Origin: Nitrospirota bacterium
Lineage (GTDB): Bacteria > Nitrospirota > UBA9217
Direction: 5' to 3'
DNA: 64,000 nucleotides
Assembly: GCA_963754875.1 (NCBI GenBank)
Contig: CAVWHO010000010.1
Location: forward strand, 273,327-337,326
The stretch's first letter is position 1. Each line of letters opens with the position of its first letter. Of this stretch, positions 41,868 through 63,997 are shown in pieces. The translations under genes were made by a program, and so were the position numbers. The notes beneath the pieces are model-generated. The model had not been told where the DNA came from and made no database searches. It worked only from the letters and a program-made list of their open reading frames with translations.

Positions 41868-41970
41868 CAAAGCGCAGAGAGCCGAGGACATAGCGCAGAG
41901 AGTAAAAGCTAGACTCCATGCCCTATGCTCTATGCTCTATGCTTCTACGCCATGCCCTATGCGCTCTGCT
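41866..41970. repeat. Inverted arms of degenerate heptamer repeats (rfbB-ugd junction)
   Basis: AGCAAAG/CGCAGAG/...CATAG left arm; CCCTATG/CTCTATG/CTCTATG...CTCTGCT right arm. Confidence 0.8.
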
Positions 41971-41995
41971 TAACTCTTAACATGCGAGGAGGATT

Positions 41996-43330
41996 ATGCG
42001 AATATCAGTAATCGGAACCGGCTATGTCGGACTGGTGACCGGCACCTGTCTTGCCGAAAGCGGCAACGACGTCATCTGCATGGATGTCGATTCGAAAAAG
42101 ATCGGGATGCTCAACTCCGGGAAGGTACCTATTTACGAACCGGGACTCGAGGAACTTATCAAACGCAATGTGGAACATGGGAGATTGACTTTCACCACGG
42201 ATATGGTCAATGCCGTGCGGACCTCTGAATTGATTTTTATCGCCGTAGGCACCCCGCCGGGAGAGGACGGATCAGCAGACCTCAAGTACGTTATCAGCGC
42301 TGCCAGGGAAATCGGCAGGCATATGAACGGTTATAAGATCATCATCAACAAGAGCACGGTACCGGTAGGGACCGGCGACAAGGTCAGGGCGGCGATTGCC
42401 TCTCAAACGAAGCGTAAATTCGATGTGGTCTCCAATCCGGAGTTCCTGAAAGAAGGGGCTGCCGTGGAAGATTTCATGAAACCGGACCGCGTCGTTATCG
42501 GCGCCAACAGCGCCAAAGCAAAGGAAATCATGCTGGACCTTTACGCACCTTTTGTCCGCAAAGGGGACCGGATCCTCATAATGGACATCAAAAGCGCTGA
42601 AATGACCAAGTATGCATCCAATGCGATGCTGGCAACCAAAATATCGTTCATCAACGAAATGGCGAATATTTGCGCCGGCCTCGGCGCCGACATCGACAGC
42701 GTGCGCCGCGGCATGGGATATGACAGGCGCATCGGTTTCGAGTTCCTCTTTCCCGGCGTAGGATACGGGGGCTCTTGCTTTCCGAAAGACGTAAAAGCCC
42801 TTGCCCAGACTGCGCAGGACATCAACGTCGATGCACAGCTGCTCAGATCCGTAGAGGCGGTGAATGAACGTCAAAAAAGCCTTCTCTCCGGCATGATCCT
42901 GCGTCATTTCTCCGGTTCGGCAGGACAAAAGAGCGTGAAGTCCAAAAAACCGCTGACCGGGAAAACAATTGCGGTCTGGGGCCTGTCGTTCAAACCGAAG
43001 ACCGATGACATGCGCGAAGCTCCTTCGGTAGTCATAATCAACAACTTGCTCCGCGCCGGAGCAGCGGTCAACGCTCACGATCCCGTTGCCATGAACGAGG
43101 CGCGCAAGATCTTCAAGAACAGGATCAACTACATGGAACAAGATTATGACGCTCTCCGAGGGGCTGATGCTCTGGCCGTTGTGACCGAGTGGAGCGAATT
43201 TCGGAACCCCGATTTCAAGAAGATAAAAAAACTGATGAAAAAACCGGTCATTTTCGACGGCAGGAATATATACACCAGGGAAGAGCTGCTGAAAGCCGGG
43301 TTTACGTATTACGGTATCGGAAGAAGATAA
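41996..43330 (+). CDS. ugd: UDP-glucose 6-dehydrogenase
   Basis: [33 protein letters not shown]. Confidence 0.96.
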
Positions 43331-43670
43331 GATATGGAGCGAGCCGACCATGTCGGCGTAAAGACGTTAAGGCGTAAAGCTTAAAGAACGGCAACACGGT
43401 TGCCTTGGTCCAAGAGATATGGAGCAAGCCGACCATGTCGGCGTAAAGACGTTAAGACGTAAAGCTTAAAGAACGGCAACGCGGTTGCCTTGGTCCAAGA
43501 GATATGGAGCAAGCCGACCGTGTCGGCGTAAAGACGTTAAGGCGTAAAGCTTAAAGAACGGCAACGCGGTTGCCTTGGTCCAGAAGATATGGAGCAAGCC
43601 GACCGTGTCGGCGTAAAGACGTTAAGACGTAAAGCTTGAAGAACGGCAACGCGGTTGCCTTGGTCCAAAA
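43331..43670. repeat. Four near-identical 85-bp tandem repeats with internal hairpins
   Basis: Units start at 43331, 43416, 43501 and 43586 (GATATGGAGC...CCTTGGTCC). Confidence 0.97.
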
Positions 43671-43716
43671 ACGCCTTGGTCCAAAGTTCCCTTGGTCCGA
43701 AAATTGAGGAGAAAGA

Positions 43717-44649
43717 ATGAGAATACTCGTAACCGGCGGCGCCGGATTTCTGGGATCACACCTCTGCGAGCGGCTGTTGGCAGCAGGAAATGAGGTGCTC
43801 TGTCTCGATAATTTTTTTACCGGCAGAAAAAAGAACGTGCAGCACCTGCTGAACAAGCCTTATTTCGAGCTAATCCGCCACGATGTGACCCTGCCGGTCC
43901 TGCTCGAAGTGGACAGGATCTATCATCTGGCTTGTCCTGCATCCCCTATTCATTATCAGTACAATGCCATTAAGACCATCAAAGCCAATGTGCTGGGGAC
44001 GATCAATATGCTCGGCATGGCAAAACGGGTAAAGGCGAGGATCCTCTTCGCCTCCACCTCGGAGGTGTACGGCGACCCCACGGTGCATCCCCAAAAGGAG
44101 GACTATTGGGGCAACGTGAACACCATCGGGATCAGGAGCTGCTACGACGAGGGCAAGCGCGTGGCAGAGACCCTGATGATGGACTACCACCGACAGAACA
44201 AGGTCGACATCAAGATCGTCCGCATATTCAATACCTACGGTCCACGCATGCTGCCCGATGACGGACGTGTCGTGAGCAACTTCATTATCCAGGCGCTCAA
44301 AGGCGAGGACATCACGGTCTACGGAAAAGGATCCCAGACGCGTTCATTCTGTTTTGTTGACGATCTTGTCGAAGGTATGATCCGCATGATGGACAGCGAG
44401 AACTTTACCGGACCGGTGAACCTCGGGAATCCGGAAGAATACACGATCCTCGAGTTCGCCCAGAAAATTATCTCTATGACGGGATCGAAATCGAAAATAT
44501 CGTATAAGCCCCTTCCGTCCGATGACCCCCAGCAGCGCCAGCCCGATATAACGCTTGCAGGCCAAAAACTGGGATGGAAACCCGTCGTTTCCGTGACGGA
44601 TGGACTGAAGAGAACCATAGACTATTTTGAGAAAGAACTGGCGTCGTAA
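43717..44649 (+). CDS. UDP-glucuronate decarboxylase (UDP-xylose synthase) family SDR
   Basis: [35 protein letters not shown]. Confidence 0.95.
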
Positions 44650-44650
44650 A

Positions 44651-44701
44651 GGCAGGGCGCATGGGGCAGAGGGCATGGTGAAAAACCCCATGCTCCATGC
44701 C
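44651..44701. repeat. Short inverted heptamer arms (uxs-kdsB junction)
   Basis: GGCAGGG/CGCATGG/GGCAGAG/GGCATGG then CCCATGC/TCCATGC. Confidence 0.7.
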
Positions 44702-44716
44702 GCTTTAAACAGGACA

Positions 44717-45490
44717 ATGAAAAATAATCAAAACCGCATCGTTGCCCTTATCCCCGCCCGTTACGGGTCCACCCGTTTTCCCGGCAAATCACTTGTCTCA
44801 ATAAAGGGAAAACCCATGATCCAATGGGTTTACGAGCGCACGCGGCTCTCGCGCCTCATCAATCGCGTTGTCGTTGCCACCGACGATGAGCGGATTATGC
44901 AAGCCGTCACGGCCTTCGGCGGAGAAGTTGTCATGACTTCGTCATCCCACCGGACCGGAACGGACCGTATCGCCGAGGTCGCGCGGAAGCTGGACTGCGA
45001 CATCGTGGTCAATGTGCAGGGAGACGAACCGTTGATCCAGCCTGAGATGATAGATGAGGCGGTCCGACCGCTCGTTGACGATGCTTCCATCCCCATGGGC
45101 ACGCTTTGCAAAAAAATCGAACGCCGTGATGAGGCCTTCGATACGAACGTGGTCAAGGTGGTCTTTGATCAAAACAACTTTGCACTGTATTTTTCCCGCG
45201 CGCCGATCCCCTGGGACCGGGACCACTGGTCAGGCAAAGAACCGCTCACGGAGATGGTTTTGGCAGGCACGATGTACAAGCACATAGGGTTGTATGTCTA
45301 TCGCCGTGAGTTCCTCCTGACTTATGCAGCATTGCCGCAAACCTCGCACGAAACATCGGAAAAGCTTGAGCAGCTCCGCGCGCTCGATCATGGACACAAA
45401 ATAAAAGTTGTGGTTACTCCATACGAGTCCTTTGGTGTTGACATCCCCGATGATTTGGGTAAAATACTGAAACATCTTGAAGAATGTTGA
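44717..45490 (+). CDS. kdsB: 3-deoxy-manno-octulosonate cytidylyltransferase
   Basis: [37 protein letters not shown]. Confidence 0.96.
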
Positions 45491-45498
45491 GGGCGGCC

Positions 45499-47148
45499 AT
45501 GGAAATGAAAAAGAAGGAAACAAAGTACATTTTTGTCACAGGCGGCGTGGTTTCGTCGCTCGGGAAAGGCCTTGCCGCGGCATCTATCGGCGCGCTCCTT
45601 GAATCACGGGGCCTCAAAGTGACGTTTCTGAAGCTCGACCCCTACATCAACGTGGACCCGGGGACCATGAGCCCGTTTCAGCATGGCGAAGTTTACGTGA
45701 CCGACGACGGCGCCGAGACGGACCTGGACCTCGGGCACTACGAGCGTTACACGAACGTTACCACGGCCCAGAAGAACAATTTTACGTCCGGAAGGATCTA
45801 TAACAACGTCATCACGAAAGAACGGCGCGGCGACTACCTCGGCGGCACGGTGCAGGTCGTGCCGCACATCACCGACGAGATCAAGCGCGCAATCACCGAT
45901 CTCGCTGACGACGAAGACGTCGTGATCGTGGAAATCGGCGGCACCATCGGCGACATTGAGAGCTTGCCGTTCCTTGAGGCCATCCGACAGCTTCGGTACA
46001 GCCTTGGCAGGCATAACGTGCTTTATGTTCATCTTACCCTCGTGCCCTTCATCAAAGCGGCCGATGAGCTCAAAACCAAACCCACACAGCACAGCGTCAA
46101 AGAGCTTCTCTCCATCGGAATCCAGCCGGATATCCTCGTGTGCAGAAGCGACCGGAATATTCCGAAAGATATGAAGCGTAAGATCGCGTTGTTCTGCAAC
46201 GTGGACGAGAACGCGGTCATCACGGCTCAGGACGTTGATACTATTTATGAAGTGCCCATTTGTCTGCACGAAGAGGGGATCGATGACCGCATCGCTGAAT
46301 TGCTGGATTTGAAGGTTTCGAAAATCGATCTCAAACCGTGGGAAAAGATCATTGAACGCGTCAAACATCCTTCGAAGAACGTCACCATCGCCCTTGTCGG
46401 TAAATATATCGACCTCAAAGAAGCGTATAAGAGCCTCTGCGAAGCGCTCACGCACGGCGGTATTGCCAATGACACGAGGGTGAACATCTGCTGGGCGGAC
46501 TCTGAAGACATAGAGAGCAGGGGAACCGAGGCCATGCTCAAAGGCATGGACGGTATTCTGGTTCCCGGCGGGTTCGGCATACGTGGGGTAGAAGGGAAAA
46601 TCGCGGCTGTCAAGTATGCCCGGGAAAACAAGATCCCGTACTTCGGCATCTGCCTCGGCATGCAGTGCGCCGTCATCGAGGCCGCGCGCAACCTCGCCCA
46701 TCTCGAGAAAGCGAACAGTTCGGAGTTCGATCTCAAGACGCCGCACCCGGTCATCTACCTGATCGAGCAGTGGTATGATTACCGAAATAAGAAAGTCCAA
46801 AAAAGGGACCTCACGAGCGACAAGGGAGGAAGCATGCGCCTGGGCGCATATCCCTGCAAGCTGGAAAAAGGCACGCTCGCCTATCAGGCATACGGAAAAG
46901 AGGAAATTTCCGAGCGACATCGTCATCGTTACGAATTCAATAATAAATATCTGGAAACGCTCAAGGCTGCCGGTCTCGCCATAAGCGGGGTTTCTCCCGA
47001 CGGAGCATTGGTGGAAATTGTGGAACTCAAAGACCACCCCTGGTTTCTTGGCTGCCAGTTCCATCCCGAGTTCAAATCAACGCCGCGGAAACCGCACCCG
47101 CTCTTCACGGCATTTATCGGAGCGGCCCTTAAAAAGAAAAGTTCTTAG
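45499..47148 (+). CDS. pyrG: CTP synthase
   Basis: [33 protein letters not shown]. Confidence 0.98.
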
Positions 47149-47159
47149 TTCGCCCCGGC

Positions 47160-47272
47160 AGTTCTTAGTTTTGAGTTTTTAGTTCTTAGTTGACTCATAA
47201 CTCACCACTACCATCAAAAGAGAAACAAAGTTGCCTAAAAAACTAAAAACTCAAAACTACAAACTGAGAACT
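47160..47272. repeat. Inverted heptamer arms (pyrG-kdsA junction)
   Basis: GTTCTTA/GTTTTGA/GTTTTTA left; ACTAAAA/ACTCAAA/ACTACAA/ACTGAGA right; 19-bp perfect complement TAGTTTTGAGTTTTTAGTT. Confidence 0.85.
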
Positions 47273-47284
47273 TAAAGGAATGCC

Positions 47285-48112
47285 TTGATTAAAGAAATAA
47301 ACATTCGCGGGGTAAAGATCGGCGGCAACAAACCTTTCGTTCTGATCGCGGGCCCCTGCGTAATCGAATCGGAAGGTGCGACGCTCGATGCTGCCGCGCG
47401 GCTCAAAAAAATCACGGCTGACCTCGGCATCCCGTTCATATTCAAGTCGTCCTATGACAAAGCGAACCGCAGCTCCGGGAAATCCTATCGGGGCCCGGGC
47501 CTGAAACAGGGGCTTCAAATTCTTCAACGAGTGGCAAACGAGCTGGACCTGCCTGTTCTTTCAGACGTGCATCGCTTTGAAGAGATCGCGCCGGCGGCGC
47601 AAGTGCTCGACGTCATCCAGATCCCGGCCTTTCTGTGCAGACAGACGGATTTCGTGATGGAAGTGGCAAAAACCGGGAAAGTGGTCAATATCAAGAAAGG
47701 CCAGTTCCTGGCGCCTTGGGACATGAAAAACGCCGTAGAGAAAGCCGTGGCCGCCGGGAATGATAAAATCGTTATTACCGAACGCGGCGTGTCCTTCGGA
47801 TATAACAACCTTGTTGCCGACATGCGCTCGCTTCCCATCATGCGGGCCCTGGGCTACCCGGTGATGTTCGACGCGACCCATTCCGTACAGCTTCCGGGCG
47901 CAGGTGGGACCGCATCGTCGGGAGACCGGAAGTTCGTGCCCCATCTTACGCGTGCCGCAGTGGCGGCAGGTGTCGACGCTCTTTTTATGGAAGTTCATGC
48001 CTGCCCTGACGAAGCTTTGTGCGACGGACCGAACATGCTGAGTTTGGATGACCTCCCGGGTTTGCTGAAACAGGCCCAGGAGATAGACAGGATTGTGAAA
48101 AGAGGCGCTTAG
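47285..48112 (+). CDS. kdsA: 3-deoxy-8-phosphooctulonate synthase
   Basis: [37 protein letters not shown]. Confidence 0.97.
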
Positions 48113-48166
48113 GGCAGAGTGCAAAAGGTTTCTCACCATGCACTATGCACCATGCGGGAATCAACT

Positions 48167-49138
48167 ATGTCCATAGAACAAGCAAAAAAAGTCCTGAGAA
48201 TAGAGGCAGAAGCCGTTGCCGCCCTCATCGAGCGGATCGACGAAAGCTTTGATAAGGCCGTTAAGATGATCCTGAACTGCGAGGGCCGCGTGGTCGTCAC
48301 CGGCATGGGCAAGTCCGGCTTGATCGGGAAAAAGATCGCCGCTACGCTTGCCTCGACCGGGACCCCGGCGCTCTTCCTGCATCCGGCAGAAGGTATCCAT
48401 GGCGACCTCGGCATGGTGACGAGGGGAGACACGGTCATCGCGCTGTCCAACAGCGGGGAGACCGACGAGCTGTCGCGCATGCTGCCGTCGCTTAAACGGC
48501 TGGGGATCGAGATCATCGCCCTCACCGGCAATGTCGATTCGACGCTGGCGAAAAACAGCGATGTGGTCATCAACGTCGGAGTGAAGGAAGAGGCTTGCCC
48601 CCTCGGTCTGGCGCCGACGGCGAGCACGACGGCCGCACTTGCCATGGGGGATGCTCTGGCAGTGGCCCTATTGGACAAACGGGGGTTCAGGGAGGAAGAC
48701 TTTGCCTGTTTCCATCCCGGCGGAGCGCTCGGCAAAAGGCTCCTCCTCCGCGTTCGCGACCTTATGCACACCGGAGATGACGTTCCCGTGGTTGCCGAAA
48801 CAACGTTAATTAAAGACGCCATCTACGAAATATCGTCGAAGAAGATGGGGGTCACAGCGGTGGTTGATGCCGCGGGAAAACTGATAGGCGTGATCTCCGA
48901 CGGCGACCTGCGCCGATGGATGGAAAAGACCGAAAAGGCCGGTGAAAACCTTCTCGCCAAAAAGGCCGCTGACATCATGACCGCGAATCCAAAAGTCGCG
49001 AACAAGGATTCTTTAGCAGCAGAAGCTGTTTCCATTATGGAAAAATATTCCATTACCTGCCTCATCGTTACCGATCCAGGAAAAAAGCCCGAAGGCGTGA
49101 TCCATCTCCACGATCTGCTGAAGGCGGGAGTGGTGTGA
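48167..49138 (+). CDS. kdsD: Arabinose-5-phosphate isomerase (KpsF/GutQ, SIS+CBS)
   Basis: TGMGKSGLIG, HGDLG, EACPLGLAPTAST, FHPGG. Confidence 0.95.
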   Translation: MSIEQAKKVLRIEAEAVAALIERIDESFDKAVKMILNCEGRVVVTGMGKSGLIGKKIAATLASTGTPALFLHPAEGIHGDLGMVTRGDTVIALSNSGETDELSRMLPSLKRLGIEIIALTGNVDSTLAKNSDVVINVGVKEEACPLGLAPTASTTAALAMGDALAVALLDKRGFREEDFACFHPGGALGKRLLLRVRDLMHTGDDVPVVAETTLIKDAIYEISSKKMGVTAVVDAAGKLIGVISDGDLRRWMEKTEKAGENLLAKKAADIMTANPKVANKDSLAAEAVSIMEKYSITCLIVTDPGKKPEGVIHLHDLLKAGVV

Positions 49139-49156
49139 CTCTGATTCTGCAGGGGG

Positions 49157-49350
49157 GAGTGAGCAGAGAGCATAGAGTTCCAAGTTTTGAGTTTTGAGTT
49201 GTGAGTCATTAACTTTGAGGCGGCTAACGAGTAGGGCTAATTCAAAACTAGCAACATCGGACTGAAAACTGACCATAAGCGCCATGCTCCATGCACTTTG
49301 CGTGATACTGATCAACACGGTTCCCTTGGTCCAAAATTGCCTTGGTCCCA
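49157..49350. repeat. Nested inverted heptamer arms plus CCTTGGTCC motifs (kdsD-kdsC junction)
   Basis: CAGAGAG/CATAGAG outer left, TTTTGAG x2 inner left, CAAAACT/GAAAACT inner right, CGCCATG/CTCCATG outer right, then CCTTGGTCC x2. Confidence 0.75.
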
Positions 49351-49356
49351 AAAATA

Positions 49357-49869
49357 ATGAGAAAATCCAGACAGAGCCTCCAATCAAAAGCGAAAAAAAT
49401 CAAACTTCTCCTGCTTGATGTGGACGGCGTATTGACCGACGGAACAATCATCCTGGACAACCAGGGAAATGAGCTCAAAGCCTTTCACGTCAGAGACGGG
49501 CACGGGATCAAGCTCGCCCAGCGGGCCGGCATTGTCATGGGCATTATCACCGGCAGAAAGTCCGAAGTAGTAAACATCCGCGCCCGGGAGCTCGGCATCG
49601 AGGAAGTGCACCAGGGGGCCCTGAAGAAGATAGAGATCTACGAGTCCATTCTTGCCAAATACGGTGTCCACGATGAAGAAGTGGCATATATGGGAGACGA
49701 CATCGTGGATGTAGACATCTTCAAGCGCGCAGGTGTTGCTGTTACGGTATCGGATGCCGACCCCTCTGTGGGGCCTTACGTCGATATGATCACGAAGAAT
49801 GAAGGGGGCAGGGGAGCAGTGCGTGAATTCATCAACCTGCTCCTGAAAAGCCAGGGAAAGCAGCTCTAG
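49357..49869 (+). CDS. kdsC: KDO 8-phosphate phosphatase (HAD)
   Basis: LLLDVDGVLTDG, FHVRDG, YMGDDIVD, GGRGAVRE. Confidence 0.95.
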   Translation: MRKSRQSLQSKAKKIKLLLLDVDGVLTDGTIILDNQGNELKAFHVRDGHGIKLAQRAGIVMGIITGRKSEVVNIRARELGIEEVHQGALKKIEIYESILAKYGVHDEEVAYMGDDIVDVDIFKRAGVAVTVSDADPSVGPYVDMITKNEGGRGAVREFINLLLKSQGKQL

Positions 49870-49870
49870 C

Positions 49871-50770
49871 ATGAACGAACGGCTGCTTCAGGTAAGAAAG
49901 CGCATTACCCTGGCCGCACTGATTGCGATCACCTGGCTCATCAAACTGTTTTCCCTCATCGTACCCTATAGAATCGGTGTCCGTGCAGGCGGGGTCCTGG
50001 GATACATCACCTATTATCTGCTTCCCAAAGAGCGAAAAAGGGCCATCGCTCATTTGACCCTGGCATATGAAGAACGCGGCCAATCGTGGATCCGCTCCAC
50101 TGCACGGCGTTGCTTTGTCCATTTAGGCAAGTCTATGCTTGAAGTCATGCTCATGAAGCCTGGCAGGCTGGCAGGCGTAGTCGAGATCCGCGGGGAGGAA
50201 TGCCTCCGGGATGCCCTCAGCCGGGGCAAAGGGGTCGTTTGGGTCACCGGCCACATCGGCAACTGGGAGTTGATGGCCCATGCGATTGCGCAAAAATATC
50301 CCGTCAGCGTGATCGCCGCGCCGATCGAGCCGGAACAGGTCAATGACATGATCGTCGGCATGCGTGCGCGTATGGGTGTCAAGACGATCTTGCGCACCAG
50401 ACCGGGGGCATCGAAGGAACTGATCCGCGCGTTCAGGGAAAACCTGGTCCTGGGCATTCTGATCGACCAGGACACCGATGTGGAGAGCGCCTTCGTCGAC
50501 TTCATGGGGAGGCCGGCCTGGACGCCCACTGCTGCGGCATCCATGGCGATCAAATTCGGAGCGCCGGTGATTTTCGGCCATATCAAACGCGGGGCCGGCG
50601 ACCGGCATGCCATCGTGATCGAAGGCCCCCTGGACATTACCATTACGGGCGACCGGGAAAAAGATATCATCGCGAATACGGCCATGCTGACAAAAAAAAT
50701 AGAGGATTGCATACATAAGGACCCCGAACAATGGGTTTGGATGCACCGACGCTGGAGGAGACAGCCGTGA
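49871..50770 (+). CDS. Lipid A biosynthesis acyltransferase (LpxL/HtrB family)
   Basis: GHIGNWE, ILIDQD, PEQWVWMHRRW. Confidence 0.93.
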   Translation: MNERLLQVRKRITLAALIAITWLIKLFSLIVPYRIGVRAGGVLGYITYYLLPKERKRAIAHLTLAYEERGQSWIRSTARRCFVHLGKSMLEVMLMKPGRLAGVVEIRGEECLRDALSRGKGVVWVTGHIGNWELMAHAIAQKYPVSVIAAPIEPEQVNDMIVGMRARMGVKTILRTRPGASKELIRAFRENLVLGILIDQDTDVESAFVDFMGRPAWTPTAAASMAIKFGAPVIFGHIKRGAGDRHAIVIEGPLDITITGDREKDIIANTAMLTKKIEDCIHKDPEQWVWMHRRWRRQP

Positions 50771-51327
50771 AGATCTTCAATGTGCCGAATATGCTCTCAA
50801 TCAGCCGCATTTTGTCGGTGCCGGTATTTATCGTGCTTATGCTCGAACCGAACCCGGTCCGTGCTTTGGCTGCAGGGATCGTGTTTTCCCTCGCCTCAGC
50901 CACTGACTGGCTCGATGGGTACCTGGCGAGAAAGTGGGGACAGGTGACCAAGATGGGCAAGCTGCTGGACCCCATCGCGGACAAAATATTGATCATGTCG
51001 GCGCTGGTTATGCTGGTCGAAATCCGCTCCGACGTCGTACACGCCTGGATTGCAATTGTGATCATCGGAAGGGAATTTGCCGTTACCGGCCTCCGCGCTA
51101 TTGCGTCGAGCGAAGGGATCATCATCCCGGCCGAGACCGTGGGGAAATACAAGGTAGGGGCCCAAATCACGGCTGTGCTTTCGCTGCTTCTCGATTATTA
51201 TTTGCCGAATGAACGGCTCAGGGAACTCGGTGCCGCTGCGCTCTGGGTAGCCATGGTCCTGGCGGTCTACTCGGCTGTGCGTTATTTCATGCGTTATTGG
51301 AGCCAGCTGGACTACGAAAACAGTTAA
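50767..51327 (+). CDS. pgsA: CDP-diacylglycerol--glycerol-3-phosphate 3-phosphatidyltransferase
   Basis: PNMLSISR, TDWLDGYLARKWGQVTKMGKLLDPIADK. Confidence 0.95.
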   Translation: MKIFNVPNMLSISRILSVPVFIVLMLEPNPVRALAAGIVFSLASATDWLDGYLARKWGQVTKMGKLLDPIADKILIMSALVMLVEIRSDVVHAWIAIVIIGREFAVTGLRAIASSEGIIIPAETVGKYKVGAQITAVLSLLLDYYLPNERLRELGAAALWVAMVLAVYSAVRYFMRYWSQLDYENS

Positions 51328-51436
51328 TAGTTTTTAGTTTTAAGTTTTGAGTTAAACTGCTCGTCCTTAAAACTGAGAGACTAAATAGGAAATTAAGAAC
51401 TAAGAACTAAGAATTAAGAACTAAGAACTGAGAACT
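51322..51436. repeat. Inverted heptamer arms (pgsA-plsY junction)
   Basis: AGTTTTT/AGTTTTA/AGTTTTG left; (C/T)TAAGAA x5 plus CTGAGAA right. Confidence 0.88.
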
Positions 51437-51443
51437 ATTTATT

Positions 51444-52046
51444 ATGATGCACATGTTTGAAATAGTTGCCGTCATAGCATCCTATCTGATAGGGGCCATT
51501 CCATTCGGGCTCATCTTTTCCAGAATATTCTTAAACATCGACGTACGGACCATCGGAAGCGGGAACATCGGCGCCACGAATGTGTTGCGCGCTGCCGGGA
51601 AAAAGGCCGCAATCCTGACCCTGTTGGCCGACGCGCTCAAGGGGTTCCTTCCGGTCCTCATTGTTCAGCACTTGTTCAATGCAGAGCTGACGACCGCGCT
51701 TTCAGGCGTTGCTGCGGTCCTGGGGCACAACTTTCCCGCGTACCTCAAATTCAAAGGCGGGAAAGGCGTGGCCACGAGTTTCGGCGTGCTCCTTGCCGTC
51801 TCCCCGTGGATAGGGCTCGTTTCGCTGCTCGCCTGGCTCGCTGCGGCCGTCATCTGGCGCTATTCATCGCTCTCCGCGCTCGTAGCATTCGCGTGTTATC
51901 CTGCCTTGACGTTTACGGTCACAAGAGAGGTTTCTCAACCGTACAAAGCCCTATCGTTGTTTATCTTCGCCATGATCTACTACCGGCACCGGGAGAACAT
52001 AAAACGGCTCATTGCGGGCACGGAGCCGAAGATAGGGAAAAAATGA
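51444..52046 (+). CDS. plsY: Glycerol-3-phosphate acyltransferase
   Basis: [36 protein letters not shown]. Confidence 0.96.
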
Positions 52047-53509
52047 AAATCAATTGCCGACGGATTAGATATGGTAATAATTTTATCGCTGTTGTCGTAA
52101 CCACGTTATTTTTTTTAGTACCTTCTCTTACCGGCATTGCCCATGCAGACTATGCCGAAGACCTGAAAGATAAGACTGCTGATTTTTCCAAAGTTCAAGA
52201 GCCATCTCCCTATGTGATCAAGCCGATCAGCAGGCTTACGATGCAGGATTTTTATTATTCAGATCATGCCGACCGACCTTACTGTTTTGAGAACTCCGAA
52301 GGAAGGTGTCTTGATAAGCAAAATAACTTTTTTACGACTCTTGAAGGAAATGGACAATACAAAAACAGGTTCTATGTTTATTACAAATCAGAGTTAAATG
52401 GGGACGGCCAGTTAAGGCTTAAAAAAGGCTATGGACTGGTCAAAATGGGTATTTGGTCCTTTGAAGCCGGCAAAGACACGATATGGATAGGGCCTGGTTA
52501 CCATAATTCTTTTCTTCTCTCCAACAATGCCGAAGGGATCAATCTCTTCAGGTTAAGGACTGATGAGCCTTTCAGGCTTCCCTGGATATTTTCCAACCTC
52601 GGTGAATTTAAGTATGATATTTTCAGAGGTTTCGCTGACAACTTCAGCATATTAGGACATACTTTGAGTTGGCGGCCAGTACCGTTGCTCGAATTAGGCG
52701 CAAATCAAGTCGTTTATATTCCTCCAGATAAACATTACAGTATTACAGAATATCCACACATATTTTTTTCGAACAGCGAGAATAGTGGCGGAACACAGGC
52801 GACAAACCCCTACAATAATGATCAGAAAGTAAGTCTCGATATCGCTCTTGACATGCCTTTTCTGAACAAAGTATCTCCTTTTGTCAATGGAAGGATATAT
52901 GCTGAGTATGGAGGAAACGATTCTTATGCTATATGGCAGCATGAAGACACGGCAAATATGCGGAAAGAACCGCTGAGAAAAAAATTGATATGGCCATTCC
53001 AATTTGATTTTCTCAACATCGCCTGGCTGTCAGGAGTATTTTTAACTACAGGAGACGTTGATTTCAGGTTTGAATATGCCCAGAATTACACTAGCTACCC
53101 TATTTTTTATGATTTATACAACGAATTGGCTAATTTTAACAGACGGCATGGCTACTGGTATTCGAGTCTCAATACCAACTACGGTATGATCACTGGCGCT
53201 GAAATGGGCAATGATGCAGATGACTATTATTATGAAATTACCATTCGACATAATCCCGGTTCTCTTAAAATCTATTTTGATCAAGAACGCCATGGTTTAT
53301 CGAAAGATATCACCTATCCGCCGGAGAAGAGAGACGAATACGGATTGAGACCGGCTTATCAATTCAAAAATTATACTTTCTTCGCAGATCTCGTATATAA
53401 CCACTATAAAAACGTGAATTTCAGCTCAGATCCCACAGTGATTGATATCCATGCCGGTACGGAACTTGACGAGTTCATAGCCGGACTCGGTGTGGAAGTA
53501 GGTTTTTAA
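52043..53509 (+). CDS. Capsule assembly Wzi-family outer-membrane protein
   Basis: Signal peptide from ATG 52043; GKDTIWIGPGYHNSFLLSNNAE; terminal VGF. Confidence 0.75.
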   Translation: MKINCRRIRYGNNFIAVVVTTLFFLVPSLTGIAHADYAEDLKDKTADFSKVQEPSPYVIKPISRLTMQDFYYSDHADRPYCFENSEGRCLDKQNNFFTTLEGNGQYKNRFYVYYKSELNGDGQLRLKKGYGLVKMGIWSFEAGKDTIWIGPGYHNSFLLSNNAEGINLFRLRTDEPFRLPWIFSNLGEFKYDIFRGFADNFSILGHTLSWRPVPLLELGANQVVYIPPDKHYSITEYPHIFFSNSENSGGTQATNPYNNDQKVSLDIALDMPFLNKVSPFVNGRIYAEYGGNDSYAIWQHEDTANMRKEPLRKKLIWPFQFDFLNIAWLSGVFLTTGDVDFRFEYAQNYTSYPIFYDLYNELANFNRRHGYWYSSLNTNYGMITGAEMGNDADDYYYEITIRHNPGSLKIYFDQERHGLSKDITYPPEKRDEYGLRPAYQFKNYTFFADLVYNHYKNVNFSSDPTVIDIHAGTELDEFIAGLGVEVGF

Positions 53510-53527
53510 ACTCTATCAGTCAATTTC

Positions 53528-54025
53528 GTTTTTCCGGTTTGTGTAGTTTATTTGGTTTGTCTGGTTGTAATAACAGCAAATGGGAGAAAACTACCATGAA
53601 GATAAACCGTTTCGAAGACCTCCAGTGTTGGCAGGAATCACGCAAATTGACGAACATGGTATATAAAGCAATACACAACAGCAAAGCATTCCAATCCGAT
53701 TATCGATTAAAAGACCAAAGCATCGGCGCTGCTGTATCAGTAATGGGTAATATCCCTGAGGGTTTCGTTCGCCGCTCCAATAAAGAGTTCATTCAGTTTT
53801 TATTTATATCGGTAGCGCCGCCGCAGAATTACAATCACACTTCTATGTGGCTCTTGATCAGGGCTATATAAGCCAAGAGGCTTTCGACACTATTTATCAG
53901 CAAACTGAGAAAACAGCCAAGATTATTTCCGGTCTGATAACATATTTACGTAGCAACGTCAAAAAGCCCACACAAGCGAAATAACAAAACAAACCAGACG
54001 AACGACACAAACCAAAAAAACCAAA
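53528..54025. repeat. Inverted nonamer-repeat arms flanking a four-helix-bundle gene
   Basis: GTTTTTCCG/GTTTGTGTA/GTTTATTTG/GTTTGTCTG (53528-53563) and CAAACCAGA/CGAACGACA/CAAACCAAA/AAAACCAAA (53990-54025). Confidence 0.8.
53596..53984 (+). CDS. Four-helix-bundle protein (TIGR02436/23S-IVP/Avd-like), frameshift near 53812
   Basis: MKINRFEDLQCWQ...DQ...AAVSVMGNIPEGF.R.SNKEFIQFL; shifted frame gives SAAELQSHFYVALDQGYI...SGLITYL. Confidence 0.88.
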
Positions 54026-54165
54026 ATCCATCCCCTAAAAATACCCTGCCAAAAGTTATGATTAATCTTTACTTTCCTGGATATTTCTCTTATAATCAAT
54101 AGGTTTGAAATAAAAATATTAATACCTATTCATTGGGACGCTAAACAGTTTATTGCAAATAATTC

Positions 54166-54687
54166 ATGGAACAAGCTTCTTCTAAAGATGCTGCGCACTG
54201 GTATGCAGTGCATGTGAAATCAAGGCATGAATTTCGGGTATACGAGAGATTGACGGGGGCGGGGATCAACACGTTCCTGCCCTCGATGAAACGACTCAGC
54301 AAGTGGAAAGACAGAAACAAGCTCGTCGAATTCCCTCTTTTCCCAGGATATCTCTTCGTTCAAATCGACAAAGGCCACGATTCGCGCATAACCATATTAA
54401 AAACTCAAAGTGTCGTTCGTATTCTTGGCACAGTTACCGGTGAACCGGAACCTGTGCCCGAGGAGCAGATTCAGTCCTTGATGAAGATTATCGATGCCGG
54501 CGTACCTCTTGATCCTTATCCCTATCTTCAGGAAGGTCAAAGAATCAGGATAAAGAGGGGACCCCTTGCAGGCATCGAGGGATTGCTCGTTGAAAAGACC
54601 GGCCAGCAGAAGCTGGTACTATCCATAGACATCCTCAGTCAAAGCACGTCCGTCACCATCCAGGCATCGGAGGTTGAGAGAATATAG
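54166..54687 (+). CDS. UpxY/RfaH-like NusG-paralog transcription antiterminator
   Basis: WYAVHVKSRHE, PLFPGYLFV, KOW motif GQRIRIKRGPLAG. Confidence 0.93.
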   Translation: MEQASSKDAAHWYAVHVKSRHEFRVYERLTGAGINTFLPSMKRLSKWKDRNKLVEFPLFPGYLFVQIDKGHDSRITILKTQSVVRILGTVTGEPEPVPEEQIQSLMKIIDAGVPLDPYPYLQEGQRIRIKRGPLAGIEGLLVEKTGQQKLVLSIDILSQSTSVTIQASEVERI

Positions 54688-54725
54688 ATCAAGTTGCTTT
54701 CGCTTTGTTCTTTTCGAAATACACC

Positions 54726-54782
54726 TTGACACTTGATAATGCTGCATGTACAATGCATTGTTCAAAATTGAACAATGCATTG
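54726..54782 (+). promoter_or_regulatory. sigma70 promoter overlapped by a perfect 15-2-15 palindrome (operator)
   Basis: TTGACA-17-TACAAT (54726-54754); CAATGCATTGTTCAA-AA-TTGAACAATGCATTG (54751-54782). Confidence 0.8.
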
Positions 54783-54831
54783 CTAGGAATCTTTTCCGTA
54801 ACGTTGGAGTTTACACCCAATTCCGAAATTT

Positions 54832-55215
54832 ATGAAGTCCACATTACACAGCACGCAGATATTACGGGATATATCAAAAAACCCAAGCATTTCTCAACGA
54901 GAGCTTGCGTTAAAGAACAATATCAGCCTGGGCAAGGTGAATTATGCGATCAGCGCATTGATCGAAAAAGGGTACATTAAAATACAGAATTTTAAAGGCT
55001 CGAAGAACAAGCGAAACTATATGTACATCCTCACTCCGAAGGGAATGTACGAAAAGACAAAACAGGCGTCTGATTTCTTGAAATGGAAGATGGTAGAGTA
55101 CGAGCGCATCAAGACGGAAATAGCTGAACTGGAAGCGGATATCAATGGACATCAGGAGCATGGCTCGATAGTTCAGCAGCAGGAGACGCAGAACATTTTC
55201 ACAGAAGAGATGTAA
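54832..55215 (+). CDS. MarR-family EPS-associated transcriptional regulator
   Basis: SQRELA...SLGKVNY...L.EKGYIK..NFK.SKNK..Y.YILTPKG. Confidence 0.92.
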   Translation: MKSTLHSTQILRDISKNPSISQRELALKNNISLGKVNYAISALIEKGYIKIQNFKGSKNKRNYMYILTPKGMYEKTKQASDFLKWKMVEYERIKTEIAELEADINGHQEHGSIVQQQETQNIFTEEM

Positions 55216-55491
55216 TGTTAGTGGTTGGAAAGCCCATAGTTCCTTTTGCGTAGCTGCTCGGCTTTTTGTCATGCCGGGATGATAGCCAGATACATTGAGG
55301 ACTCGATAAATTTCGCAAAATTGATAGACCTGTCAGTCAATGTGACTGAGAGGGCGGAGCTGTGTAAACAGGATTTCATACTATTTTTGCTACTCGCAAT
55401 AAGCTTTTAATTGAACCGAGGACCTAACACTCGAAACTACGATCTATCGATAGCGAAAAATTAACTATGACTCATGAACTGCAGTAGTTTT

Positions 55492-56427
55492 ATGGAAAAA
55501 AACTCAAAAATCTACATAGCCGGCATCAATGGCATGGTTGGTTCAGCAATCAAACGGCAGACTGCTATCCGAAGGGTTTACGAACGTCGCGGGACACTCA
55601 TTCAAAAGAGCTGGACCTCACCAATCAGTCCGCGGTAAATGAGTTTTTTCCAAAGAGAAAAACCTGAATACCTGTTCCTGGCTGCCGGCAAAGTAGGCGG
55701 TATATATGCCAATAACACGTATCCCGCGGATTTTATTTACACTAACCTGATTATTGAATGCAATATCATTCACGGCGCATATAAAACAGGCGTGAAAAAA
55801 CTTCTTTTACTGGGGTCATCATGCATCTATCCGAAATATGCGCCACAGCCGATGAAAGAAGAGTATCTTCTCAGCGGTACGCTTGAACCGACCAATGAGC
55901 CCTATGCCGTGGCTAAGATCGCGGGGATCAAAATGTGCGAATCCTACAATCGGCAATATGGGACCGATTTTATTTCCTGCATGCCGACCAACCTTTACGG
56001 GCCGAATGATAACTACGACGCGATGAACTCTCACGTCCTGCCTGCATTGATCCGGAGGTTTCATGAAGCAAAAGTGAATGGAGCACATGAGGTTGTTGTG
56101 TGGGGCACCGGGACAGCGCTGCGTGAGTTTCTTTACGTTGATGATCTGGCCGATGCGTGCTTGTTCCTCATGAACAATTATACGGGGAACGAGACCGTGA
56201 ATGTAGGGTCCGGCATGGAAGTCTCGATTCGTGCATTGGCTGAGACCGTTCAGGAGATCGTGCAGTTCAACGGGAAGCTCGTTTTCGACAACACGAAGCC
56301 CGACGGCACGCCAAGAAAACTGCTGGACACCTCGAAGTTGGCAGGAATGGGGTGGAAGGCGAAGACGCCCCTAAAAGAAGGAATTAAGCTTGCTTACGCG
56401 AATTTCTTAAAAAATGTTGAGTTTTGA
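55492..56427 (+). CDS. fcl: GDP-L-fucose synthase, frameshifts near 55555-55650
   Basis: [20 protein letters not shown] at 55492; ORF 55639 has [31 protein letters not shown]. Confidence 0.92.
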
Positions 56428-56441
56428 GTTTGAAGTTGCGT

Positions 56442-56794
56442 ATGAGGAAATAACCTCGTGAAGATAGATGAGTGGATATTGGATTTAGCGTTACTGATAT
56501 AGAATCATACAGATACTTATGAAAACGGAATCGTTCTCTCGAAACAACTTCTTAGGTCCGGAACATCTATAGGCGCGAATGTTACGAGGCGCAGGCTGCC
56601 AAAGCAAAAAAGATTTTGTCTTCAAGATGGCTATTGCGTCAAAAGAAGCGAGGGAAACCGACTCTGGTTGAGATTACTCGAAGTCGGGTTTTTTAACTGA
56701 TTTCGATAACAAGATAAACGCTTAACATGAAGTAATCGCGATCATAGATATTATAACGAAAATTGTTAAAACATCCCGAAGCAAGTGTCGATAG
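56442..56794 (+). pseudogene. Four-helix-bundle gene with many indels
   Basis: Fragments LSKQLLRSGTSIGANV, SKKDFVFKMAIASKEARET, WLRLL and ITKIVKTS are recognisable but broken by indels. Confidence 0.8.
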
Positions 56795-56857
56795 TGAGTG
56801 TTCGTTCTGATTGAGTCCAAACTGCCAAAAGCCTACTCAAACTCAAAACAGCGTTAT

Positions 56858-57986
56858 ATGGACAAAGGTCATCCAAAACCCAACACCCAACACTCAAAAC
56901 CCAAAACAGCACTTATCACTGGTGTGACCGGCCAGGACGGCGCATATCTTGCCGAGTTCCTGCTCAAAAAAGGCTACGAAGTCCACGGCATCAAGCGCCG
57001 GTCTTCAATGTTTAATACGGACAGGATAGATCATCTGTATCACGATCCGCACGAGAAAAATGTTAAGTTTAAACTGCATTATGGCGATCTGACCGATTCA
57101 ACGAACCTGATACGGATCATTCAGGAAGTGCAGCCTGATGAAATTTACAATTTGGCTGCCCAAAGCCATGTGCACGTGTCCTTTGAAACGCCGGAATATA
57201 CGGCAAACGCCGATGCTATCGGCACGCTCAGGATTCTGGAGGCAATACGGATTCTTGGCCTGACAAAGAAATGCAAGTTCTACCAGGCATCGACTTCAGA
57301 GCTCTACGGTCTGGTACAGGAGACTCCACAGAAAGAAACGACTCCCTTTTATCCGAGGAGCCCCTACGCTTGCGCAAAATTGTACTCCTATTGGATAACG
57401 GTGAATTACCGGGAAGCATACGGAATCTTCGGGTGTAACGGCATTCTTTTCAACCACGAATCTCCTCTTCGCGGTGAAACGTTCGTCACGCAGGAAAATT
57501 ACCAGGGCTGTTGCAAGGATTAAATTGGGATTCCAGGAAAAAATCTATCTCGGCAATATTAACTCGAAAAGAGACTGGGGACATGCAAAGGATTACGTCG
57601 AGGCCCAGTGGATGATCCTGCAGCAAGACAAACCGGAGGACTTTGTAATCGCTACCGGAGAACAACATTCAGTCAAGGAATTTGTGGAAGCTGCTTTCCA
57701 GGAAGTGGGGATGCAGGTGCGGTGGGAAGGGGCGGGCATAGCGGAAAAAGGATACGATAAAATCTCCGGGAAAGTTCTCGTAGAAGTCGATTCTCGTTAT
57801 TTCCGCCCAACGGAAGTTGAGACGCTTCTCGGCGATCCCACCAAGGCCAAAACAAAACTTGGCTGGAAGCCCAAGGTCACGTTCCATGAGTTGGTGTCGG
57901 AAATGGTAAGAGAAGATCTTAAAGAAGCGGAGCGAGATCAATTGTGCAAAAAGGAAGGCTTTCAGGTGATGAATCATCATGAATAG
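56858..57986 (+). CDS. gmd: GDP-mannose 4,6-dehydratase, frameshift near 57490
   Basis: [36 protein letters not shown] | [21 protein letters not shown]. Confidence 0.95.
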
Positions 57987-58072
57987 CTATATGGAAGGCG
58001 AGGAAGAAAAGCTGTAATGCAAAGTAAGAAACACACCTCCAGATACTCAAAGACATCAAGAAGGGAAATCGC

Positions 58073-59712
58073 ATGCAAAAAAAAGTCTCTATGAGCCCCG
58101 ATGGCGTGGAATATCCCTTACCCGGAAAAGAAGAAGAAGCACATGAATTTAAGAGGGTTTCAATGAGCTGCCGCGACGGCGCGAAACAACGGACAAGAGG
58201 TTGTCGTCGTGATGGGAGTCGGTTTTGTCGGTGCAGTGATGGCAGCAATTATTGCCGACTGTGTCGATAAATCGGGTAAGCCGACCAAATTCGTCATAGG
58301 AATGCAGCGTCCTAGTGTGCGCAGCTATTGGAAAATTCCTTTACTAAATCAAGGTGTTTCGCCAGTGAAGGCTGAGGACCCGAACGTCGCTCCCCTGATT
58401 GAACGGTGCGTAAAGGAGAAAAAGACGCTCATGGCGACCTTTACCTACGATGTATTGTCTCTTGCCGACGTCGTCGTCGTCGATGTACAGTGTGACTATA
58501 CAAAAAATGAACTAGGAAATGTCAAGAACGGCCAAGTGGACATGGCCGCCCTCGAAGAGGCCTTTGAAATAATCGCTAACAAAATCAATCCCGACACGCT
58601 TGTGCTGATCGAAACAACAGTCGCACCAGGGACAACGGAACAGGTTGCCTTTCCGATTATGAAAAAAATATTTTCGAAACGAGGTATTCAGTCAGATCCT
58701 CTCTTGCTCATAGTTATGAGCGGGTCATGCCGGGAAAGAATTATGTCTCGTCCATACGTGACTTTTGGCGGGTATGCAGCGGGGTCAATGAACATGGCAA
58801 AAGATAAAGTGGTTAAATTTTTAAAGGAAGTGATCAATACTGACAAATTTCCTTTAACAGTACTTGATCGTCCAATTGAATCTGAGACTGCAAAAATCGT
58901 AGAAAACAGCTATCGCGCAACCATTCTCGCATTCATGGACGAGTGGAGTCTTTTTGCGGAAAGAAACGGTGTCGACATTGTTAAAGTGATCAATGCAGTA
59001 AAAATGAGACCTACGCACAGCAATCTGATGTTCCCTGGACCAGGCATCGGCGGCTATTGTCTTCCTAAAGACGGGGGCTTGGGGGTATGGTCGTATAAAC
59101 ATATTCACGGTTTTGAGGACGATATTTTCCGATATCACTCCGCAAGCAATCGATATTAACGATACCAGGCCACTTCACAGTGCCCAACTTGTACGCGATG
59201 CATTGCGAAATATGAATGTTCCCATTGCTGGAGCTGAAATATTGATTCTCGGCGCATCTTATCGAGAAGATGTTGGTGATACACGTTACAGCGGTTCAGA
59301 AGTTCTCGTCCGGAAGCTTGCGGAAATGGGGGCTGAAATTCGTGTCCATGACCCTTATGTAGATCAATGGTGGGAATTTAAGAATCAAGAAGTATATCCG
59401 AACAGCAGTAAGAGTGTTTTTTTTCGGAATCAGAAAAAACTGAACGACTTACAGGTTCAAAAAGATCTGGGAAAGGCGCTCACCGGCATCGATGCATTAG
59501 TTTTGGCTGTTAGGCACAAAGAGTATCTCAATTTGAAGCCTGATGAAATAGTTCGTTCGGTAGGTAAACCCCTCGCAGTGATTGATTGCTTTGGTATTTT
59601 AGATGATGACAAAATTAAAAGATATCTTGAGTTAGGCTGTGAAGTAAAAGGAATGGGAAGAGGACATATTCGGAGAATAAAGGAATCTATCAAGAAAGAA
59701 AGTGTTGAGTAG
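58073..59712 (+). CDS. Nucleotide-sugar dehydrogenase (UDP-glucose/GDP-mannose dehydrogenase family), several frameshifts
   Basis: ORFs 58073, 58209 and 59113 join: GVGFVG, ETTVAPGTT, PGPGIGGYCLPKD, GASYREDVGD. Confidence 0.85.
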
Positions 59713-59781
59713 ATTCTATGCCAATTACTTGACATCATGCATTCTATGTGCGGAAATCAAATTTTAACAGATGAGGTTGCT

Positions 59782-60819
<1,038 letters not shown>

Positions 60820-62664: not shown

Positions 62665-63997
62665 CAGGCCGCTGAAAAAGTGGCCTTTAACATAAAACTT
62701 TCTACTTGGTGATTGATTTTTCTTGGATCGTGATGCCTATGATCGACTTTGTTGCTCATTTAAGATCGCCTTTCGGCCCGTCTATGCGGGATTCCGCTGC
62801 CCGTTTGCTATGTGGCGGCTGCAACTCGTCGTTGGATGTTTGCTATCCGCATCAGGTTATAGGCAGCTCCGACGAACCAGGCTTGAAGATGGGTTCGATC
62901 TCTTCCTTTGTACCGTGTTCTTCTGAAGCCGCCGATGGTCTTGAGCCATCCGAAGATCTCTTCCACTCGTTTTCGGACTCGTTGACTGATTATGTATCCT
63001 TCATGACGGGTGGTGCGACCGTCGATCGCAGAACCGCCTCTTCGCTCGGTGTTGGCCGCTACATGTGGGGTGATCTCTCGGTTCCGCATGGCTTCAATAA
63101 AACCCTGGGTATCGTAGCCCTTGTCAGCTCCAAGGGTGCTGGGCTTCACTCGCTTCCGGGCTTGGCGGGTCAGCATCTCCTTGGCCGCTTCCCGTTCCGC
63201 GTCTCCTGTTGCCGGGGTAACGGTGATGTCGATCAAGAGGCCGTTCCGATTCTCCATCAGGGCATGGGCACCGAAAGAGAGTTTGGCCTCCTTGCCCCTG
63301 CTTTTCTTCATCAAACGGGACTCGGGATCAGTGGTGGAAGCATGAGTCTTGTTCGATCGCTTCTCGCCATGGAAGTTCACCGAGGGGTTTCCCGGATCAT
63401 CGTCAGTCGTCGGCCTGTCAGAAGGGTCTTCGTCCTTGGGACGAAAGCTCTTGAGGCTCGCGCAAGCCTCGATCAGGGTGCCGTCCACGGTAAAGTGATC
63501 ATCCGAGAGCAACCCGTCCTTCCGGGCGATGTTGACCACGCGGTCGAAGAACTTCACCGCAATCCGGTGTTCCAGAAGCCGATCCCTGTTTTTCGTGAAC
63601 GTCGTAGGATCGAACGACGCCTCTTCCAGGTTCATGTCCAAAAACCAGCGAAAGAGGATATTGTAGTCCACCATCTCGCAGAACTGGGTCTCGGAACGAA
63701 CCGAATACAGGGCAATCAGAAGCTGGGACTTGAGGAGCCGCTCCGGTGGAATCGATGGCCGTCCCATCTTGCTGTACATCGAATCAAAGATCGGAGAAAG
63801 CTCGGAAAGAACTGTATCCGCAAGGGCTTTGATCGCTCGCAAGGGATGCTGGATCGGTACCCGCTGTTCAGGAGAAAAGTAACTGAACATCCCGCTCTGA
63901 ATATCGTGTTCACCGCGCATGTGGCCTCCTTGTCAACTGCCGTTGAGCCACTATACGCATTTACATCACATTTGAAAAGGACTTTTTCAGCGTCCTG
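62665..63997 (-). mobile_element. IS5-family insertion sequence (~1.33 kb)
   Basis: 17-bp terminal inverted repeats CAGG(C/A)CGCTGAAAAAGT (16/17); CTAG on the left and CTA at the window edge on the right. Confidence 0.92.
62808..63920 (-). CDS. IS5-family DDE transposase
   Basis: HPLRAI, GRPSIPPERLL, FTVDGTLIEA, GADKGYD, RKRVEEIFGW; GGAGG RBS. Confidence 0.95.
   Translation of the reverse strand: MRGEHDIQSGMFSYFSPEQRVPIQHPLRAIKALADTVLSELSPIFDSMYSKMGRPSIPPERLLKSQLLIALYSVRSETQFCEMVDYNILFRWFLDMNLEEASFDPTTFTKNRDRLLEHRIAVKFFDRVVNIARKDGLLSDDHFTVDGTLIEACASLKSFRPKDEDPSDRPTTDDDPGNPSVNFHGEKRSNKTHASTTDPESRLMKKSRGKEAKLSFGAHALMENRNGLLIDITVTPATGDAEREAAKEMLTRQARKRVKPSTLGADKGYDTQGFIEAMRNREITPHVAANTERRGGSAIDGRTTRHEGYIISQRVRKRVEEIFGWLKTIGGFRRTRYKGRDRTHLQAWFVGAAYNLMRIANIQRRVAAAT

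Follow-up and report, generated by a model that had tools for sequence, protein, structure and literature searches.

In the REPIN-RAYT system a single gene with flanking repeats is reportedly accompanied by many gene-less inverted pairs in intergenic DNA, the sequence of which is specific to the lineage; the RAYT protein is said to be an HUH nuclease and the REPs to be palindromes. Open reading frame (ORF)-bearing intervening sequences of 23S rRNA genes (S23p/PF05635; Coxiella, Leptospira) possess terminal inverted arms, and the accessible part of the Coxiella paper places tandem heptamers upstream of the ORF and in the stem of the element, which RNase III cuts, and draws no link between protein and repeat (PMC4990558). 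Avd, from diversity-generating retroelements (DGRs), is a pentameric four-helix-bundle ring in which all five subunits bind nucleic acid (10.1101/2023.10.23.563531, PMC10053308); in the crevices that separate its subunits, the protomers grip RNA bases that have been flipped out (10.1101/2023.10.23.563531), and its ligand is one stem-loop, not a periodic array. Intergenic arrays of 7-8-mers, paired on opposite strands and species-specific, are described for Geobacter, Xanthomonas and Nostoc (PMC2700814, PMC4692102); one class has five heptamers, and the arrays lie near the upstream gene. The paired sites of Geobacter metallireducens were read as sites of unidentified, global regulators (PMC2700814) and the heptamers of Xanthomonas and Nostoc as possible quadruplexes (PMC4692102); in their accessible portions, either no protein is given or IHF/HU or G-quadruplexes are proposed, PF05635/TIGR02436 is named by neither, and the terms "four helix" and "S23" are absent from the main texts (supplements aside). 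Here we describe two repeat-armed genes of the four-helix-bundle family PF05635/TIGR02436 in a 64-kb stretch of Nitrospirota DNA (contig CAVWHO010000010.1; "the window", to which all positions refer). The genome of the window is designated G000; L and G numbers denote family loci and family genomes, respectively.

The preferred explanation, to which we assign a probability of roughly 0.55, is that each window gene is a broken copy of a small gene-plus-repeat element residing at gene junctions. Such an element would consist of a four-helix-bundle gene between arrays whose degenerate unit, 7 or 9 bases long, is particular to the protein lineage. Its predicted pentameric product would bind its own repeat, taking up about five units and likely one with each subunit, and would help arm pairs without a gene to arise at further stop-to-start junctions. 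We consider the element to be real and undescribed in the literature searchable here, in which no paper joins PF05635/TIGR02436 to tandem-repeat arms (subscription journals lay mostly outside the search, as did supplements of cited papers); judged from sequence, binding is likely and spread plausible.

The cassettes are not members of any of the three gene-bearing systems. They share the protein family and the terminal inverted arms with the ORF-bearing 23S intervening sequences, but lie between protein genes (wzi/upxY and fcl/gmd) and not inside an rRNA gene, their arms are degenerate arrays without locus-specific complementarity, and most pairs are gene-less. Unlike DGRs, they have no adjacent reverse transcriptase (RT) or template repeat, and Avd-like DGR loci lack arms. 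REPIN-RAYT is closest in population structure, with its many gene-less inverted copies between genes; in contrast, the identified neighbors of our cassettes are polysaccharide genes with no adjacent HUH (RAYT) transposase, no catalytic site is known for the protein, and the arms consist of tandem arrays.

The original prediction, that two Avd-like genes each lie within their own repeat arms, was confirmed at the positions in Table 1, the arrays far exceeding those of a codon-shuffled genome; it missed the frameshifts in both genes and the fact that most arm pairs hold no gene. The arms of gene 1 are 43 nt each, with a period of 9, and are 79% complementary. PF05635 matches its N-terminal part (61 bits, 1.3e-16; cut-off 33.8), and TIGR02436 matches both halves above the cut-off of 24 (55.6 + 26.1 bits). 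A 1-nt deletion at ~53814-53818 breaks the reading frame; this may be real or an assembly error, the latter because the window is a contig end and the neighboring genes carry ~1-3 indels/kb; the one DNA sequencing run examined for this site contained reads of relatives only. On gene 2, TIGR02436 gives weak pieces only (19-24 bits; cut-off 24), and the gene stands at 67% to the intact ortholog L188, which occupies the same fcl-gmd site and is 89% identical. Relative to L188, gene 2 carries 14 indel events in 348 nt, far more than fcl (3 in 918 nt) or gmd (2 in 700 nt), and is therefore a decayed copy. Its left arm is 36-38 nt shorter than that of L188, which carries the same heptamer and is its nearest relative, whereas the first right array is 100% complementary over 13 nt (56837-56849). 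No transposase adjoins either cassette, and no RT was found among the adjoining ORFs; no Rfam match was obtained in window 40000-60000, and promoter and terminator scans gave chance-level results only. Near the contig end (55490-62640) several polysaccharide genes, namely fcl, gmd, a nucleotide-sugar dehydrogenase and an ABC transporter, are frameshifted, and an insertion-sequence transposase is present beyond them at 62808-63920.

Similar arrays are abundant throughout the genome, which contains 184 heptamer and 96 nonamer arrays compared with 6 and 15 in the codon-shuffled genome. An inverted partner (score of at least 26) accompanies 109 of 356 arrays, against 6 of 356 random controls, and for 83 of the 109 it lies within 50 nt. 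The gene-less inverted pairs of 7-9-mer arrays number about 65 (69 as listed, of which three are duplicated via overlapping contig ends), comprise about eleven unit types and exceed the gene-bearing pairs roughly ten to one. Their polarity is that of the cassettes (32 inward, none outward), and in 25 of 38 co-directional pairs the left arm begins no more than 15 nt from the upstream stop codon. Four genes of the family are intact in this genome, and the repeat unit differs from one to the next. Six gene-less pairs are found within window 41866-51438, three of them of the gene 2 type.

Table 1. Positions of the two cassettes, their flanking genes and the gene-less pairs in the window.
Feature	Position	Strand	Remarks
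Capsule assembly Wzi gene, upstream of gene 1	51806..53509	+	PF14052
Gene 1 left arm, ~4-5 degenerate nonamers, RGTYYRTYK type	53524..53566	+	15 nt past wzi stop
Gene 1, PF05635/TIGR02436 four-helix-bundle gene, nonamer clade	53596..53984	+	ATG 53596, TAA 53984; Asn at loop position 56
Right arm of gene 1, inverted nonamers	53983..54025	-	Begins at gene 1 stop codon
UpxY antiterminator, downstream of gene 1	54166..54687	+	
GDP-L-fucose synthase fcl, upstream of gene 2	55490..56427	+	
Gene 2 left arm, three AGTTNTN-type heptamers TGTTGAG/TTTTGAG/TTTGAAG	56415..56435	+	Contains fcl stop
Gene 2, decayed TIGR02436 gene, LLRSGTS subfamily	56442..56794	+	ATG 56442, TAG 56794
First array in right arm of gene 2	56835..56849	-	
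Gene 2 right arm, second array, five heptamers	56873..56908	-	Within first codons of gmd, as an in-frame N-terminal extension
GDP-mannose 4,6-dehydratase gmd, downstream of gene 2	56858..57986	+	
Gene-less GCATAGA-type pair	41866..41970		
Gene-less GCATAGA-type pair before kdsB	44651..44701		
Gene-less inverted pair, gene-2-type heptamers, pyrG-kdsA junction	47160..47276		
Gene-less GCATAGA-type pair, kdsA-kdsD	48105..48155		
Nested gene-less pairs at kdsD-kdsC	49161..49294		Outer GCATAGA type, inner gene-2 type
Gene-less inverted pair, gene-2-type heptamers, pgsA-plsY junction	51319..51438		

Arms also occur in frame inside protein genes for a P-type ATPase, a response regulator and a histidine kinase (G000:C7:187303-187615, C16:22867-23558 and C10:208604-208634). 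At G000:C11:6350-6788 a gene of a different protein family, which we take from its motif to be GxxExxY-like, has the same layout between 10-mer inverted tandem arms. Elsewhere in the window, an 85-nt unit is repeated four times in tandem (43330-43703; 96% matches), with short GCCTTGGTCC-like repeats at the end, and a similar short motif recurs at 49320-49345.

Whether each protein lineage carries its own repeat type was examined among 230 collected family loci, which yielded 203 usable genes from the phylum of the window, other phyla and metagenomes. Inverted flanks (score of at least 30) surround 172 of the 203, compared with 3% in shuffles and 8% when the flank of another locus was substituted; the DGR-type Avd-like loci L069 and L070 have no arrays. 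For the 177 loci with detectable periodic arms, arm type correlates with protein identity (Mantel 0.30; the maximum of 500 permutations was 0.03, and 0.09 when permuted within GC bins), mean arm similarity rising from 0.03 at <30% protein identity to 0.37 at 70-80%. The predicted pairing of protein subfamily with repeat type is thus upheld by this clade-to-repeat test. Among the 24 nearest relatives of gene 1, found in Nitrospirota, deltaproteobacterial, planctomycete and Chloroflexota records and next to a variety of genes, all possess downstream nonamer arrays; the arms are inverted in 17, direct in four and downstream only in three.

Some tree signal would arise from co-inheritance alone, if the repeats were slippage products and the gene traveled with its flanks while its protein did not read them. 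We give this explanation very little weight. Four-fold degenerate sites are identical at 29% in 258 pairs with a common arm type and at 30% in 795 pairs without; since synonymous sites are saturated in the former, the repeat unit is held by constraint and not by drift, across different phyla and neighbors. Furthermore, fixed and free positions within the units are sharply distinct, position 7 is no more alike in neighboring units than at random, and unit number drops sharply above five. On the other side, the residue test described below is not significant once phylogenetically independent pairs are taken, and some genomes have abundant repeats with no matching gene found.

The binding of the repeat by the protein, raised as a possibility in the original prediction, now appears likely on the evidence of unit number, residue-base covariation and pentameric relatives. 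The predicted model of relative L013 (pLDDT 97) resembles 2GSC (TM 0.88) and 2RLD (TM 0.82), both of which have five chains, and, more weakly, the Avd structure 4DWL (TMq 0.76), and by homology to these the cassette protein is predicted to form a pentamer. Five units are found in 28 of 49 AGTTNTN arms, and more in only three; among 75 AGTNCAN arms, 26 have five and 23 have four (4-5 units in 49), with more in 11. This peak of the heptamer arms matches the solved pentamers.

A test of loop residue 56 (L013 numbering), which took in 70 of 95 loci, revealed that it covaries with unit position 4, Asn accompanying T in 30 of 31 loci and Asp accompanying C in 15 of 17. The rule was found in heptamer clades, fixed beforehand and then held in the unused nonamer clade, where Asn-T is seen in 18 of 18 loci (gene 1 included) and Asp-C in 9 of 11. 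The pairing of Asp with cytosine is a familiar contact. Taken together, these observations suggest that the protein probably binds its own repeat in a sequence-specific manner.

The resemblance to Avd raises the question of whether these genes serve as cofactors of a DGR elsewhere in the genome, where seven RT matches are present. This is barely credible: the genes score as TIGR02436, the Avd profile NF033474 gives no match to the gene pieces of the window (and E 0.12 for L013), the Avd-like DGR loci are without arrays, and the only RT to be examined proved to be a group II intron maturase. Such a maturase is encoded in L315:2856-5367 (G000:C8), ~700 nt downstream of a four-helix-bundle cassette with palindromic nonamer arms.

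That the cassettes resemble mRNA intervening sequences, as originally proposed, holds insofar as they are the same type of element as the ORF-bearing 23S intervening sequences; they do not appear to be built for excision from a long mRNA stem. If the arms were kept as such a stem, from which RNase III excised a gene-bearing RNA, partner arms should be matched to each other. The arms of gene 1 do close a stem in the predicted fold, but one no better than the repeat type gives, and partners pair about as well as unrelated arms of the same type (0.79 vs 0.805 for the AGTTCAG type, n=19; 0.770 vs 0.760 for all 54 pairs, p 0.07). At the free position 7, matches between partners fall below shuffled values (0.26 vs 0.36 and 0.35), the transcribed strand shows no preference for G-U pairs (38 vs 30 over 43 pairs), and the spacers, rich in purines to the left and in pyrimidines to the right, show no locus-specific pairing. 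The model is further weakened because direct arms cannot enclose a gene: two additional orthologs of the gene 1 family have them, bringing the total to 6 of 26, and three of the 26 possess a downstream arm only. Three of the 203 cassettes do lie inside 23S rRNA, where sequence outside the repeats pairs as well, as in Coxiella; the Coxiella 23S element has heptamers in its stem and undergoes RNase III cutting (PMC4990558). Overall, excision from mRNA seems quite improbable, and incidental RNase III cutting of the arms is possible. The cassette lands only rarely in rRNA as an intervening sequence; in terms of the gene-plus-repeat element, such sequences would represent the same cassette in a 23S helix, where removal by RNase III would render it harmless. 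In one instance (L215:269-1571) a single 23S rRNA gene contains two different repeat-armed cassettes at two places.

Comparison of related genomes reveals gains of the arrays. At pyrG-kdsA the genes abut in 24 of 29 family genomes; the fillings are gene-2-type heptamers in G000, gene-1-type nonamers in G031 and a third type in G018 and G046. The pgsA-plsY and kdsA-kdsD junctions display the same pattern, and relatives show independent gains of gene-less pairs at shared junctions. Genome G003 (87% DNA identity) has no gene-1 cassette between wzi and upxY, and its right flank aligns; for gene 2, a comparable fcl-gmd junction was found among 23 other gmd loci only in the abutting pair L312. A check for MITEs or insertion sequences was limited by the closest relatives, which at 81-87% identity are too distant to reveal a target-site duplication.

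Other insertions were noted at these junctions. In L322:1790-2650 (G005, kdsA-kdsD) an 800-nt two-gene insert lies between ~36-nt direct duplications composed of the 3' end of kdsA and the first repeat unit, which resembles site-specific integration at an arm. In L320:3100-4150 (G013, pyrG-kdsA) a nucleotidyltransferase/HepT-like toxin-antitoxin pair directly follows the first repeat unit, and G014 has another small gene pair inserted at pgsA-plsY. A viral vehicle for the cassettes was considered and set aside, the viral contigs containing a single family relative.

A different reading of the arrays is that they are host regulatory sites, at which the ring binds DNA or the transcript of an operon and thereby adjusts processing, stability or termination, having arisen by slippage and been kept by selection, with nothing selfishly mobile. 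The position of the arms at stop codons (no farther than 15 nt away in 25 of the 38 co-directional pairs) in cell-envelope operons would suit such a role, repeat unit number differs among close relatives as it would through slippage, and the Geobacter paired repeats were likewise read as regulator sites (PMC2700814). We nevertheless regard it as unlikely, for different repeat types replace one another at a junction at which most relatives have none, the genes are patchy and often broken, and arrays are also located inside coding regions.

The gene-plus-repeat element predicts that repeats accumulate where a matching gene is present. Repeats were counted by pattern over 64 family genomes. The gene 1 clade is present in G000, G031 and G033; G031, with an intact matching gene, has the top nonamer count (39). 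Five of the 15 other strict nonamer loci of G031 lie no more than 22 kb upstream of its gene, in an operon where G000 has gene-2-type pairs. The two highest AGTTNTN counts, 158 in G006 and 40 in G070, belong to the only genomes with a close intact gene-2-type gene, and in G000 three of 12 AGTTNTN loci are within 10 kb of gene 2 (p ~2e-5). For the third type, AGTNCAN, a test set beforehand had a mixed outcome, the carriers G003 (97), G008 (29) and G047 (29) all ranking in the top 7 of 64. On these data the odds that the protein has a role in the spread of its repeats appear about even. Since the protein has no known catalytic role, the joining step would have to come from a host enzyme acting in trans; the route favored here, though with rather low confidence, is copying via a transcript with a borrowed RT, by analogy with Avd.

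A number of observations weigh against the proposed element. The nonamer arms lack a sharp five-unit peak (of 86, 21 have three units and 20 have five). The residue-56 rule amounts to nine tree changes and six supported independent pairs, of which 4.4 run the same way and none the opposite, too few for significance (sign test, median p 0.125); a residue-52 rule of the gene 2 subfamily, which gene 2 itself obeys, follows clade for the most part (1-3 changes). As to spread, comparison of G000 with G003 at the gene 1 site does not polarize gain versus loss, and G006 supplied the query, leaving G070 as the sole independent AGTTNTN case. AGTNCAN-rich genomes in which no matching gene was found include G068 (283), G000 (49), G035 (39), G007 (37) and G069 (26), the assemblies being 68-97% complete, and G052 has six nonamer-like matches but no gene of the gene 1 clade. 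The operon takes several repeat types, and the clustering may in part reflect a general hot spot. Lastly, a crude pattern search found no RT motif within 1.5 kb in the 203 loci, and the unit logos do not show an adenine-type mutation pattern, so that such mutagenesis was rejected as the source of unit variation. In G068 the 283 AGTNCAN pattern matches occur in an assembly of 2.1 Mb.

In its widest form, which we put forward tentatively and at somewhat less than even odds, the proposal is of an undescribed, transposase-free class of selfish elements. Their pentameric ring would recognize five tandem 7-9-base units through a simple residue-to-base code and would seed new copies of its repeat at stop codons, mostly within the operon to which it belongs. 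Such elements would be the source of the Geobacter, Xanthomonas and cyanobacterial heptamers and of the ORF-bearing rRNA intervening sequences, and an ancestor or sister of DGR Avd. The window places two lineages side by side, with 9-base and 7-base units, which suits a clean cross-binding comparison. If the explanation is true, it would provide a function for PF05635/TIGR02436, a very common family of unknown function, tie this family to the long-noted, unexplained excess of intergenic heptamer repeats in many bacterial genomes, make the ORF-bearing rRNA intervening sequences one landing site of a wider element, and provide a small, naturally occurring ring protein whose base code can be read.

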